64,000 bases of DNA from an uncultured Bacillota bacterium (GTDB lineage: Bacteria > Bacillota > Dethiobacteria > DTU022 > UBA8154), in assembly GCA_937973635.1 (NCBI GenBank), contig CALJJZ010000035.1:103947-167946 (forward strand), in the 5' to 3' direction. Shown piece after piece: positions 8,555-12,286 of this stretch (position 1 is its first letter; each line of letters opens with the position of its first letter). The position numbers were made by a program, and so were the translations under genes. Under the pieces are notes generated by a model. That model did no database searches and was not told the origin of the DNA. It saw only the letters and a program-made list of their open reading frames with translations.

Positions 8555-9106
8555 GTGATTTTAAAAGTGCGTGCAAGCGCCGTCGAAGGGCTGTCCCCGG
8601 CAGAAAAGCTCCCTTTATTTTATGGAAAAGATCGGCTGATTCTGCTTACGCGGGACCCGTACTGGCTTTATACTTACTGGGAGGTTACCCCTGCCGCAAG
8701 GCAGCGCCTGGAAAAGGAAGGGCAGCGCTGCTGGGAACACCTCAGTCTGGCCCTGAGGGTAAAACGTTATGCCGACTCCGCCATGCTCAAGGAGGAGAGC
8801 TGTTACCATCTTCCCATAAACCATACTGCCGACAACTGGTGTCTAGAAGTAGGCGTGCCGGACCGTTATTACCAGGTTGAACTGGGAGCACAGGTTCCGG
8901 GAAAAGGTTTTATCGCCCTGCTTTGTTCCAATATGGTCAAAACGCCCCGCGATGAGATGAGCAGCCTCATTGATGAAAACTGGCGTCTGCCGGACTGGCA
9001 GGCAAAGCGCCTTTACCGCCGCATCACCCGGGGCAGTATCAGCTCCCTGGAAATGTCCGCGTGGGGCGGGGGCAGTATCATTCCTGAGAGGAGAGAAAAA
9101 AATTGA
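8555..9106 (+). CDS. DUF4912 domain protein
   Basis: YGKDRLILLTRDPYWLYTYWEV...SNMVKTPR; typical partner upstream of GH57 branching enzymes. Confidence 0.8.
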   Translation: MILKVRASAVEGLSPAEKLPLFYGKDRLILLTRDPYWLYTYWEVTPAARQRLEKEGQRCWEHLSLALRVKRYADSAMLKEESCYHLPINHTADNWCLEVGVPDRYYQVELGAQVPGKGFIALLCSNMVKTPRDEMSSLIDENWRLPDWQAKRLYRRITRGSISSLEMSAWGGGSIIPERREKN

Positions 9107-10746
9107 CGCCGGGAGGCTATCTCGCTTTTATTTTCCATGCCCATCTTCCTTATGTGCGCCATCCCGAGTACCAGCAGTCGCTGGAGGAAAAATGGTTTTT
9201 TGAGGCCCTGACCGAGTGTTACATTCCCCTGCTGCGCGTTTTCCAGGGTCTTGCCGCCGACCATATAGATTATGCCGTTACTTTTTCCCTTTCTCCCACC
9301 TTGTTGTCCATGCTGGAAGATCCTTTCCTGCAGGAACGCTATGCCACTTACCTGGCCGGCCTGCAGGAGCTGGCCCGTAAAGAAGAAGCCAGGACAGCGG
9401 GAGACCCGCTGTTTTCGCCCTTGGCTGCCATGTACCGGGAGAGGCTCGATTATGCCGCCTATCTTTTCCATGAAAAATATGCCAAACGCCTGGTCAACGC
9501 CTTCCGCGAGCTGCAGGACCAGGGCAAAGTGGAAATTATTACTTCGGCAGCCACCCACGGTTACCTGCCCCTTCTGGCCGTACAGCGGGAAGCGGTTTAC
9601 GCCCAGCTGGTAACGGGCATTGATTGCTACCGCCAAATTTTCGGCACCCCCCCCCGCGGCATCTGGCTGCCGGAATGTGCCTATGACCCGGTACTGGAAG
9701 ATATACTGGGCGAGCTGGGGCTGCAATATTTCGTTACAGCTACCCACGGCGTCCTCTACGCCAGCCCCCGCCCCAAATACGGCGTTTACAGCCCTATCCT
9801 GACCCCAGGAGGCCTGGCCGCCTTCGGGCGGGATCCGGAAACATCACACCAGGTGTGGAGCGCCAAGGAAGGTTATCCCGGTGACTACTTCTACCGCGAG
9901 TTTTACCGCGACATCGGTTACGACCTGGAGATGGAGTATATCGGCGAGCACCTCCATCCCGCCTACCTGCGCGGCAATACCGGCTTTAAGTATTATCGCA
10001 TTACCGGGCCCGGCGAACACAAGGAGGTCTATAACCAACGGCTGGCCCTGCAAAAAGCATGGGATCATGCGGCCAACTTCAAATTTAACCGGGAAAAACA
10101 GCTTGAATACTACGGCGGAGTAATGGACCGCCCGCCGCTGGTAGTAGCCCCGTATGATGCGGAGCTGTTTGGCCACTGGTGGTTTGAAGGTCCCCAGTGG
10201 CTGGATTACCTCTGCCGTATGTTGCACGGTCAACAGTTCTTGCAGCTGATCACTCCCGGCCAGTACCTGGATCAGGGTTATACGCTGCAACTATCTACGC
10301 CCAATATCTCCAGCTGGGGCGATAAAGGATATCATGAAGTCTGGCTCAACGCCAGAAATGACTGGCTCTACCGGCACCTGCACCATGCCGCAGAAAGGAT
10401 GATCGAGATGGCTACCGGCCACCCCCGGGCCGAAGGGGCCGTCAAGGAAGCCCTCACCCAGGCTGCCCGGGAGCTGCTGCTGGCCCAAAGCAGTGACTGG
10501 CCTTTTATCATGACGGCCGGGACCATGGACCGTTACGCCGAGACCCGCGTCAGTAAGCACCTGCTCCGCTTCCTGGCTCTGGACCGCCAGATCCGGGAAG
10601 AAAAGATCGATCTGCCTTGGCTGCGCTCTATTGCCGCCGCCGACAACCTCTTTCCCGAACTCGATTACCGGGTTTTCCAGAGCCTGGAGTCTACGGTGCC
10701 GGTGGAAAAAGGGGAGCTGGAAAAAGCGGGCAGTAAAAGGGCGTAA
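9103..10746 (+). CDS. GH57 1,4-alpha-glucan branching enzyme (DUF1957)
   Basis: HAHLPYV, GIWLPECAY, PYDAELFGHWWFEGP, AQSSDWPFIM. Confidence 0.92.
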   Translation: MTPGGYLAFIFHAHLPYVRHPEYQQSLEEKWFFEALTECYIPLLRVFQGLAADHIDYAVTFSLSPTLLSMLEDPFLQERYATYLAGLQELARKEEARTAGDPLFSPLAAMYRERLDYAAYLFHEKYAKRLVNAFRELQDQGKVEIITSAATHGYLPLLAVQREAVYAQLVTGIDCYRQIFGTPPRGIWLPECAYDPVLEDILGELGLQYFVTATHGVLYASPRPKYGVYSPILTPGGLAAFGRDPETSHQVWSAKEGYPGDYFYREFYRDIGYDLEMEYIGEHLHPAYLRGNTGFKYYRITGPGEHKEVYNQRLALQKAWDHAANFKFNREKQLEYYGGVMDRPPLVVAPYDAELFGHWWFEGPQWLDYLCRMLHGQQFLQLITPGQYLDQGYTLQLSTPNISSWGDKGYHEVWLNARNDWLYRHLHHAAERMIEMATGHPRAEGAVKEALTQAARELLLAQSSDWPFIMTAGTMDRYAETRVSKHLLRFLALDRQIREEKIDLPWLRSIAAADNLFPELDYRVFQSLESTVPVEKGELEKAGSKRA

Positions 10747-10845: not shown

Positions 10846-11538
10846 TTGCCGGAGAAGGATTGTGGGCTTATGTTTGGATACATGCTGGATAAAGAAGAGA
10901 TGGGGTCCTACATCGGCGCCTACAAGCACGCCCAGGCCGCCTTCTCCCGGAAAGACCCCCTAGAGATGGCAAAACTGAGCGGCACCGTGTTCGACTCTGA
11001 AAAATCCTCCTTTACCGTAACCAGCCTGGGACAAATACTGGAAGTAAAGTACCCTGAAGGCACCATCCGTTTTGGCGGCACAGCCCTTTCCCCCAGGTGG
11101 AACTGGCGCCTCATTGTCTTAAACTATCTGGCCAGAGCCGATGCCACTCCCCTTACAGGCGAGCTCATTACCTATAAAGAGCTGGAGGGAGGCGCTGTCT
11201 TTTTCCCCGCTTTCTACAAGATGAACAACGTCCGCCTGATGGAGGCCCTCTCCGGCAAATCCCTGCCAGAGATCAAAAAAGCCTGCCTAGCCTTAAAAGC
11301 CCTATTAAAAGAGGAAGCCGATCTCAGCGCCGTCTTCCTTTTCCTGCCCAGGTTTCCCATCATGCTGAAACTCTGGTTGCCCGATGAAGAGATGGCTGGA
11401 TCGGCCAATATATTATTTGATGCCAGTGCAAACCACTACCTGCATACCGAAGACATTGCCGTGGCCGTTTCCCTTATTGTGGACTTCCTTATTGACAGTA
11501 TGCAGGAAGGGAGGAAGGGACAGGACCTATCCCTTTAA
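10846..11538 (+). CDS. DUF3786 domain protein
   Basis: LNYLARA..PLTGELITYKELEGG..F, FLPRFPI..LW..DEE..GSANILFD..HYLHTEDI. Confidence 0.8.
   Translation: MPEKDCGLMFGYMLDKEEMGSYIGAYKHAQAAFSRKDPLEMAKLSGTVFDSEKSSFTVTSLGQILEVKYPEGTIRFGGTALSPRWNWRLIVLNYLARADATPLTGELITYKELEGGAVFFPAFYKMNNVRLMEALSGKSLPEIKKACLALKALLKEEADLSAVFLFLPRFPIMLKLWLPDEEMAGSANILFDASANHYLHTEDIAVAVSLIVDFLIDSMQEGRKGQDLSL
11515..11535 (-). promoter_or_regulatory. Putative bacterial SECIS hairpin
   Basis: mRNA AAGGGAUAG-GUC-CUGUCCCUU stem-loop starting 15 nt after the in-frame UGA, with G in the apical loop. Confidence 0.6.
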
Positions 11539-11925
11539 ATAAAAAAGCCCTCAGAGGCATTTGCCTTCCCGCAGCACCTCACCCTTCCGCGTATCCAGGC
11601 AGGGGCATACATTTTCCGGGATATTGTCAAAACGGCAGGGACAGTAAAAATCCCCGTACCGCCGGTACTTCTGCAGGAGCCCTTCCTTTACCAGCCCTTT
11701 ATCTTCGTTAAAGACATACCCTTTGAGCCTGGCGTACGTTTCTATGCGCTCACTAATTTCCGCTTCCGGTTCCATGGGAAAGCGTTCCGCCCTGATTTCC
11801 GGCTCCGTTTCCCGGATTTCAAGGCGGGCGGCACAGATAGGGCAGATCACCTGTTTGCCCACAAAGACCTCTTCGCCATACATAAAATTTATGCGGCAAA
11901 CAGGACAGTAGATTTTTAGTTTCAT
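11527..11925 (-). CDS. Ferredoxin:thioredoxin reductase catalytic-subunit-like protein with N-terminal zinc ribbon; probable selenoprotein (UGA at 11553-11551 read as Sec)
   Basis: CPVC..CPIC ribbon; YCPCR..CPC..GKCL-UGA-GLFYLKG-UAG restores the conserved FTR CxCGLF motif. Confidence 0.82.
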
Positions 11926-12164
11926 TAACGCAGGGCCTCCTCGATCTCCTCCGGTTTAAAGCCCTGGATCACCTTTCCGTTGATTACCAGCACAGGGAAA
12001 GAAGTCCTTCCCGTAAGCCTTTTTACTTCCTCCACAGCTTTTTTTTGCGTATCGCCGCTGATTAAGTCCACCTCAATACAGTCAAAGGCAACAGCATTTT
12101 TTTCCAGCAACTGCTTGGTCTTTTTGCACCACGGGCAGGTACTGAGGGAATAAAGCGTAATCAT
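11925..12164 (-). CDS. Glutaredoxin/NrdH-like protein
   Basis: YSLSTCPWC active site, TSFPVLVINGKVIQGF; TAATG overlap with the FTR-like gene. Confidence 0.9.
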   Translation of the reverse strand: MITLYSLSTCPWCKKTKQLLEKNAVAFDCIEVDLISGDTQKKAVEEVKRLTGRTSFPVLVINGKVIQGFKPEEIEEALR

Positions 12165-12286
12165 GACAGCCAACACTCCTTCGCAAATTAATTAAGGCCC
12201 GGCACAGGATCAAAACTAAATTTAAAGCATAACTTTATTGTTGATTATTATACAATAATAATTTGCCGCATGGCAAGGGTAACAGC

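Follow-up and report, generated by a model that had tools for sequence, protein, structure and literature searches.

Gene organization of the locus

The window analysed here is a stretch of 64,000 nucleotides from an uncultured Bacillota bacterium. Its minus strand carries two adjacent genes, one for a glutaredoxin-like protein and one for a disulfide reductase related to the catalytic chain of ferredoxin-thioredoxin reductase (FTR), and the reductase gene contains an in-frame UGA codon. The upstream gene (11925..12164, minus strand) encodes a glutaredoxin-like protein of 79 amino acids with a CPWC active site, which was assigned from its Pfam Glutaredoxin match (E = 7.3e-18), its match to the PDB chain 7pwe_A and its linkage to the reductase gene. 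Its TAA stop overlaps the ATG of the reductase gene by 1 nt (TAATG). As an open reading frame (ORF), the reductase gene runs on the minus strand from the ATG at 11925 to a TGA at 11553..11551 (ORF 11925..11551), with 124 codons and a C-terminus ending in ...REGKCL. When the TGA was read as selenocysteine (Sec, U), the frame added GLFYLKG and then met a TAG at 11529..11527, so that the full selenoprotein gene occupies 11527..11925 on the minus strand, with 132 codons plus TAG and a product of 132 residues. The initial annotation had described this same continuation beyond GKCL-UGA, and the TGA=U translation bore it out. The assignment of the full gene draws on this translation, a match to the Pfam family PF02943 and matches to the PDB chains 7pwe_A, 4tpu_A and 7bzk_A.

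Pairing of UGA and Cys at codon 125

The UGA at codon 125 (11551..11553, minus strand) stands at the second position of a C-x-C motif (C123-L-U125), and its reading as Sec was examined by alignment with Cys-containing relatives and by codon counts. With a cut-off of E <= 0.001, a protein search gave 230 relatives; 120 of these were listed, and most of the listed ones have a length of 124 residues. In an alignment of 22 rows, six longer relatives (P0017, P0018, P0026, P0032, P0040 and P0104) have a Cys in place of the UGA and continue with GLF or GLY, and the 15 other relatives end exactly before it. At the level of nucleotide sequence, matches were present in 8 of 33 genomes of the taxonomic family, all eight with one in-frame TGA and an alignment reaching residues 130-132, while a phylum-wide sample of 401 genomes yielded eight close orthologues, four with TGA and four with Cys.

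A contig search gave 137 relatives, from which the best 80 loci were kept. Codon 125 was examined in 94 loci in total, some of them being the same genome reached by two routes, and it was TGA in 70, TGC or TGT in 23 and cut by the contig end in one (L131); neither TAA nor TAG was found at this position among the 94 loci. A motif filter that demanded GDF before CPC passed 90 loci (67 TGA, 13 TGC and 10 TGT), and three loci that it dropped (L027, L104 and L108) are TGA forms in which EDF or GNF takes the place of GDF. The tail (G/N)L(F/Y).. that follows codon 125 is conserved in both the Sec and the Cys forms. The UGA therefore pairs with Cys in full-length homologues, six in the alignment and 23 among the loci, which is the pairing that the initial annotation had proposed to look for. 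Nor do homologues normally end at this point, as it had considered they might: the Cys forms run on, and the other two stop codons are absent from codon 125.

A SECIS-type hairpin behind the UGA codon

A hairpin with the sequence AAGGGAUAG-GUC-CUGUCCCUU lies at 11535..11515 on the minus strand (11515..11535), with a 9-bp stem and the loop GUC, and is proposed as a selenocysteine insertion sequence (SECIS) on the grounds of folds, a covariance model and covariation. It starts 15 nt past the UGA, just where the initial annotation had put it, and the UAG stop of the reductase gene (11529..11527) falls within its 5' arm. Folding each sequence separately placed a hairpin at the same position in all 59 distinct TGA sequences, with a start 12-18 nt past the UGA and the true stop codon usually within the 5' arm. 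The loops of these 59 sequences were GTT (32), AGTT (7), GGTC (5), GTC (3), GGT (3) and a few others. A G/U apical loop is the expected motif of bacterial SECIS elements.

A covariance model built on the hairpin gave 62 matches in 486,190 bases from 83 sources, 61 of which lie behind a TGA and one in the Cys form L028, and no match was obtained in the other 21 Cys-form sources. Two of the TGA forms, L027 and L108, were matched by the model although they were outside its seed. All seven of the seven stem pairs that were compared have changes on both sides, amounting to 53 cells against 22.3 +/- 3.3 in shuffled alignments, with none of 500 shuffles as high. The covariation score was 0.382 compared with 0.258 in the shuffles (0/500 as high) and 0.13-0.28 in controls with slid partners. 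The 'not paired' cells of this test are overcounted relative to the per-sequence folds, because stems with loops of 4-6 nt are mis-registered in the gapless MAFFT alignment (A2) and 46 columns remain in the model-fitted alignment (A3). The element thus combines a position shortly past the UGA, a G/U loop and support from covariation, as is looked for in a bacterial SECIS.

Two Sec forms, L061 and L099 (3373-3440), have a tail of 14 residues after U, GLYYLKEQDAPNNN and GLFYLKEQVAPDNK; with a tail of this length, translation must cross the whole hairpin, and there is no stop in the 5' arm. The TGT Cys form L028 (1873-1918; identical in L078) keeps a SECIS-like hairpin together with the longer tail GLFYLPGQVLS, a tail that it has in common with its sister Sec forms L073 and L074. 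L028 seems to have changed from Sec to Cys recently, with its SECIS surviving as a fossil.

Selenocysteine machinery of the genome

The initial annotation had asked whether the genome carries the sel genes, since the lack of a Sec machinery would make the gene a nonsense mutant, and the machinery was found. The tRNA-Sec scored 75.2 bits and was called by ARAGORN as SeC with anticodon tca; selB scored 380 bits, selA 601 bits and selD 363 bits, and all four are over their curated cut-offs. SelB was also over its cut-off in six of the six other Sec-form genomes tested. On the strength of these comparisons of codons, hairpins and genomes, we regard the decoding of UGA-125 as Sec as nearly certain.

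The selD match itself (contig C86:21265-22194 of the genome G000, locus L016) contains one in-frame TGA, so that SelD appears to be a selenoprotein here. The idea that Cys forms are tied to a loss of the Sec machinery was rejected, since selB is kept in four of the four Cys-form genomes tested.

Domain composition of the selenoprotein

Residues 58-129 (11539..11754, minus strand) form an FTR-catalytic-type domain, which matches the Pfam family PF02943 (FTR catalytic chain) with E = 2e-10 and 41.1 bits against a cut-off of 22. The motif layout is C95-P-C97, x9, C107-P-C109, x13, C123-L-U125, so that the CPC...CPC...CxC pattern is complete with Sec at its last position, and C95, P96, C97, C107, P108, C109 and C123 are all invariant in the 22-row alignment. 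In a six-frame search of the genome the domain scored 35.5 bits and was the only PF02943 gene, and the FTR variable subunit (PF02941) had no match in this genome, which is 96% complete. With neither a variable subunit nor a second PF02943 gene, the reductase appears to be of the type of ferredoxin disulfide reductase (FDR) rather than a classical FTR, and we consider its assignment as an FDR-type iron-sulfur disulfide reductase very probable.

The best relatives of solved structure by sequence are 7pwe_A, 4tpu_A and 7bzk_A, the last being the FTR catalytic chain of Arabidopsis, and U125 falls on the second Cys of C-x-C in all three. In the chain 7bzk_A this Cys is 30 residues past the second Cys of the first CPC. 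In Arabidopsis FTRC, the nucleophilic Cys87 is described as making the mixed disulfide with thioredoxin and as pairing with Cys117 at rest. A five-coordinate cluster is mentioned for alkylated FTR (PMC2754724). From the alignment with 7bzk_A and the Cys87-Cys117 pairing, U125 would be the counterpart of the nucleophile's partner. The initial annotation had placed Sec at a catalytic position that interacts with the cluster, and of this the catalytic role gains from the alignment of U125 with the disulfide partner of the nucleophile, and a contact with the cluster would be expected from work of Dai et al. (2000 and 2007), in which the partner residue reportedly binds a cluster iron in the one-electron intermediate.

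The N-terminal domain covers residues 1-48 (11782..11925, minus strand) and was delimited by its invariant Cys residues, AlphaFold2 and Foldseek. C7, C10, C28 and C31 are invariant in the 22-sequence alignment, in agreement with the CxxC..CxxC ribbon noted from the sequence at the outset, and 17 residues separate the two Cys pairs. The AlphaFold2 model built from the 22-row alignment was good over residues 1-90, with a predicted local distance difference test score (pLDDT) of 87-94 over residues 1-50. The top Foldseek rows for residues 1-48 were LysW zinc ribbons (target-normalised TM-score, TMt, 0.70-0.86; weak E of 4e-3 to 8e-2), and the Pfam model Zn_ribbon_LysW scored 18.4 bits, below its cut-off of 27. 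No PDB entry was matched by Foldseek at E <= 0.001, and the weaker rows for LysW, 7PWE and 4TPU serve as support only. We read residues 1-48 as a four-Cys zinc ribbon, which could be structural, a docking element or a rubredoxin-like iron site.

The last of these roles is an alternative to a part of our reading, namely that the N-terminal domain is no structural zinc ribbon but a rubredoxin-like iron centre that feeds electrons to the cluster, as was proposed for the rubredoxin domain of the FDR of Methanosarcina acetivorans. In its favour are the invariance of all four Cys and the presence of a rubredoxin domain in the solved archaeal FDR (4tpu_A). Most homologues, moreover, read CP[VI]CGA at the second knuckle, which resembles the CPxCG knuckle of rubredoxins. 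The top structural and profile matches, however, are LysW zinc ribbons and not rubredoxins, and the spacing of the Cys pairs in rubredoxins is longer than 17 residues. We therefore judge a rubredoxin-like centre rather unlikely, at about one chance in four, and keep to the zinc ribbon.

The glutaredoxin-like partner

In 79 of 81 distinct loci, which bear several phylum labels, the gene directly upstream of the reductase gene and in its orientation is a glutaredoxin homologue, so that the coupling of the two proteins read from the window alone proved to be a conserved linkage. Of the two exceptions, L125 is preceded by no more than 17 nt of sequence and L120 is a 5'-truncated copy. In the latter (record of Pelotomaculum propionicicum strain MGP, ~640-1060) the reductase is without its first ~25 codons and no glutaredoxin gene lies upstream; the copy keeps the TGA, the tail and the hairpin, and it may be rearranged or decaying.

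The best NCBIfam match of the glutaredoxin-like protein is the YruB family, with 69 bits against a cut-off of 88.6. It also matches residues 6-81 of 7pwe_A (E = 1.2e-12), and since both proteins of the pair match the halves of this chain, the operon is the split form of a natural fusion. For the start of the gene, ATG 12164 seems likelier than the GTG at 12176 given by the ORF lister, because it lies 11 nt past the ribosome-binding motif GAAGGAG, which GTG 12176 abuts, and because it fits the alignments of homologues better. That the neighbouring glutaredoxin-like protein is the substrate of the reductase is, in our estimate, a reasonably good bet, at about two chances in three.

Proposed mechanism

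Considering the above results, we propose that the two-gene operon at 12164..11527 (minus strand) encodes a ferredoxin-type disulfide relay with a 132-residue selenoprotein, a reading to which we give a probability of about 80%. It draws directly on the recoding signals, the Sec/Cys pairing, the Sec machinery, the homology of the domains and the linkage of the genes. For the binding of a cluster, the electron donor, the glutaredoxin as substrate and the contact of selenium with iron, we infer the following course of events.

SelB with Sec-tRNA(Sec), recruited by the hairpin 15 nt downstream, would decode UGA-125, and translation would go on for seven further codons after U125 to end at the UAG within the 5' arm of the hairpin. 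In the folded protein, judged by homology, C95, C107, C109 and C123 would hold a [4Fe-4S] cluster, next to which C97 and U125 would be joined in a redox-active selenenylsulfide. Ferredoxin is the most likely source of the two single electrons that would open this selenenylsulfide through a cluster-bound intermediate. After the first electron, the U125 selenolate would stay on the cluster, leaving C97 to attack the disulfide at CPWC in the glutaredoxin-like protein. With the second electron, the reduced glutaredoxin-like protein would be freed and would then reduce its cellular targets.

Sec enzymes usually place Sec at the exposed attacking position. Here Sec would instead occupy a buried, cluster-facing site, and a direct Fe-Se(Sec) bond in the [4Fe-4S] intermediate, with a resting selenenylsulfide next to the cluster, can be put forward tentatively, at somewhat less than even odds. 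The cluster-facing position of Sec raises a question of iron-sulfur and selenium chemistry in its own right. If such a bond were true, the enzyme would offer the first natural system in which selenolate-ligated iron-sulfur catalysis is tractable.

Support for the reading and alternatives

Several observations weigh against the proposed relay or lessen the force of the evidence for it. The fold of the window hairpin alone is unremarkable (z = -1.3 on an 81-nt stretch), and the SECIS case rests on the comparison of relatives. These relatives are not independent, as many come from one group of sediment metagenome-assembled genomes (MAGs), and the covariance-model alignment is fitted to the structure, with 59 of its 62 rows being its own seed. 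Because the 5' arm is coding, the conservation of the hairpin is partly due to the protein. Rfam gave no SECIS family in the window at gathering thresholds or at 11400-11650 under permissive settings, and only chance-level miRNA and snoRNA rows appeared. The presence of the Sec machinery does not discriminate between the two forms, as Cys-form genomes keep selB. In the AlphaFold2 model, pLDDT is < 50 over the catalytic residues 94-132. Gene adjacency is no proof that the glutaredoxin is the substrate, and for the M. acetivorans FDR the reported substrate is a thioredoxin-type protein whose active-site motif is atypical.

There is an alternative in which the Sec enzyme is real and the glutaredoxin is not its substrate, its place being taken by a thioredoxin-type protein, a low-molecular-weight disulfide, polysulfide or a selenium compound, or in which the glutaredoxin acts as the electron donor instead of ferredoxin. 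Consistent with this, the pair has no linked ferredoxin gene, the glutaredoxin is the only neighbour to recur in the 15 loci compared, and the zinc ribbon is without an assigned role. However, the upstream glutaredoxin-like gene is kept across nearly all loci and several phylum labels, with the 1-nt overlap in the window, and a natural fusion of a glutaredoxin and a reductase domain has been solved (7PWE). We consider this alternative improbable, roughly one chance in seven, and retain the relay from ferredoxin to the glutaredoxin-like protein.

Another reading takes the UGA for a genuine stop codon or a nonsense mutation, with the annotated 124-residue protein, which lacks the last active-site residue, as the functional product. 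It fits the public records, which give the homologues as proteins of 123-125 amino acids, and the hairpin could pass for a terminator-like structure at the gene end. This reading is nevertheless scarcely credible: it would delete one of the two redox-active residues in a genome that possesses the Sec machinery, only TGA or Cys codons occur at position 125, a seven-codon tail (G/N)L(F/Y).. that matches the tail of the Cys forms is kept past the TGA, and the hairpin stands at a fixed distance from the UGA, covaries and has no U run behind it here.

Comparison with known systems

Selenoproteins of the FTR type have been reported previously. Zhang & Gladyshev (2008, PLoS Genet; PMC2398784) described homologues of the FTR catalytic subunit as a new selenoprotein family from ocean metagenomes, and found two sequences, one of them with Sec at both redox-active Cys positions. 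Reviews of 2022 and 2026 list 'Ferredoxin-thioredoxin reductase' with the motif CxU, and the 2026 review ties it to the NCBIfam model NF041072 with two Sec residues; in a term search of that review, neither a further entry for PF02943 nor one for a zinc-ribbon form came up. The window protein agrees with the 2008 homologues and NF041072 in its FTR-catalytic-type domain, its Sec at a redox-active Cys position and its bacterial SECIS past the UGA. It differs from them in scoring 26.3 bits against the cut-off of 160 of NF041072 ('FtrB family double-selenoprotein') and in having one Sec rather than two, with the CPC position remaining Cys. It also has the N-terminal zinc ribbon, and the labels of its clade are mostly Bacillota rather than marine plankton. 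As predicted from its sequence, the window protein is a real, unannotated selenoprotein of a separate zinc-ribbon clade outside NF041072, within a Sec-FTR type that has been known since 2008. The zinc-ribbon architecture or the linkage to a glutaredoxin may already be described in the literature.

Among solved structures, the best PDB match of the reductase domain is 7PWE, a fusion of glutaredoxin and ferredoxin disulfide reductase from Desulfotalea psychrophila (7PWE residues 90-169, E = 5.4e-6), which has the same order of glutaredoxin and then reductase. In contrast to the window, where two ORFs overlap by 1 nt, it is one chain; it has CYC where the window protein has CLU, and its match excludes the zinc ribbon. 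Literature searches found no paper on 7PWE or the Desulfotalea fusion, and a search for an 'FTR-like' disulfide reductase found nothing.

The FDR of M. acetivorans (4TPU) is, like the window protein, a single-subunit FTR-like enzyme with CPC..CPC..CxC and an extra four-Cys metal domain, and it is described as an iron-sulfur enzyme related to FTRc. Its rubredoxin domain, however, is C-terminal, it is all-Cys and archaeal, and its reported substrate is a thioredoxin-type protein. Classical cyanobacterial and chloroplast FTR (7BZK) has the same catalytic motif and aligns at the active-site residues, yet it is a heterodimer with the variable subunit, for which PF02941 was not found in the window genome (96% complete). 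The motif spacing also differs, with x9 and x13 in the window protein compared with x16 and x8 in the chain 7bzk_A.

Distribution, annotation and significance

The distribution of the two forms was viewed in a quick, unrooted tree that comprises 83 distinct proteins, of which 61 have Sec and 22 have Cys. In this tree a Cys-only group of 13 rows (support 99) is formed by Atribacterota, with one row labelled actinobacterium and one unlabelled, and eight Cys forms are interspersed with 60 Sec forms. Parsimony on Sec and Cys gave seven changes, and well-supported branches force at least two. The clade labels are mostly Syntrophomonadaceae, Desulfotomaculaceae and Peptococcaceae. Five members, L058, L062, L118, L126 and L130, are in MAGs labelled Desulfohalobiaceae, Deltaproteobacteria, Limnocylindrales, actinobacterium and Spirochaetia; these labels mean that the two-gene module was transferred laterally or else that the MAGs were mis-binned or mislabelled.

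In public databases, the Sec forms are named 'ferredoxin-thioredoxin reductase catalytic domain-containing protein' and have 123-124 residues, and the RefSeq entries for Pelotomaculum propionicicum and Ca. Formimonas warabiya likewise have 123-124 residues and are without one of the two catalytic residues. The public records of the Sec forms are truncated. No NCBIfam model covers the window protein, whose score to NF041072 was 26.3 bits.

The practical gain of this analysis is in annotation: with a model made for this clade, the gene could be corrected in dozens of genomes. Most members of the clade have the Sec form (61 distinct proteins, against 22 with Cys), and the cultured anaerobes that carry it include Pelotomaculum propionicicum, Desulfotomaculum copahuensis and Ca. 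Formimonas warabiya. The strictly conserved pair of glutaredoxin and reductase points to a ferredoxin-driven thiol relay in strict anaerobes. If the reading with a direct Fe-Se(Sec) bond is true, it would also define a ferredoxin-to-glutaredoxin thiol relay that is typical of syntrophic and sulfate-reducing Bacillota and hidden by current annotation.

Neighbouring genes

A convergent DUF3786 gene lies at 10846..11538 on the plus strand (Pfam PF12654, E = 4.9e-48). The last 12 nt of its ORF overlap the recoded tail, and the ORF covers the hairpin, so the overlap of the tail and SECIS with its 3' end that was pointed out in the initial annotation does exist; it is incidental, with no evident meaning, since DUF3786 neighbours the pair in one of 81 distinct loci. 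A functional link to DUF3786 was rejected on the same count. An alanine symporter neighbours the pair in two of the 81 loci. Among 63 flanking ORFs from 15 loci, no recurrent neighbour family was found save an extracytoplasmic function (ECF)-type sigma factor in three loci. This ECF-type sigma-70 gene lies ~1-1.6 kb downstream of the pair, at 4988-5485 in L059, 4532-5023 in L090 and 3965-4591 in L105. Elsewhere in the window, positions 9103-10746 hold a gene for a GH57-type 1,4-alpha-glucan branching enzyme, unrelated to the reductase, and a 183-aa ORF before it overlaps its start (8555-10746 for both).

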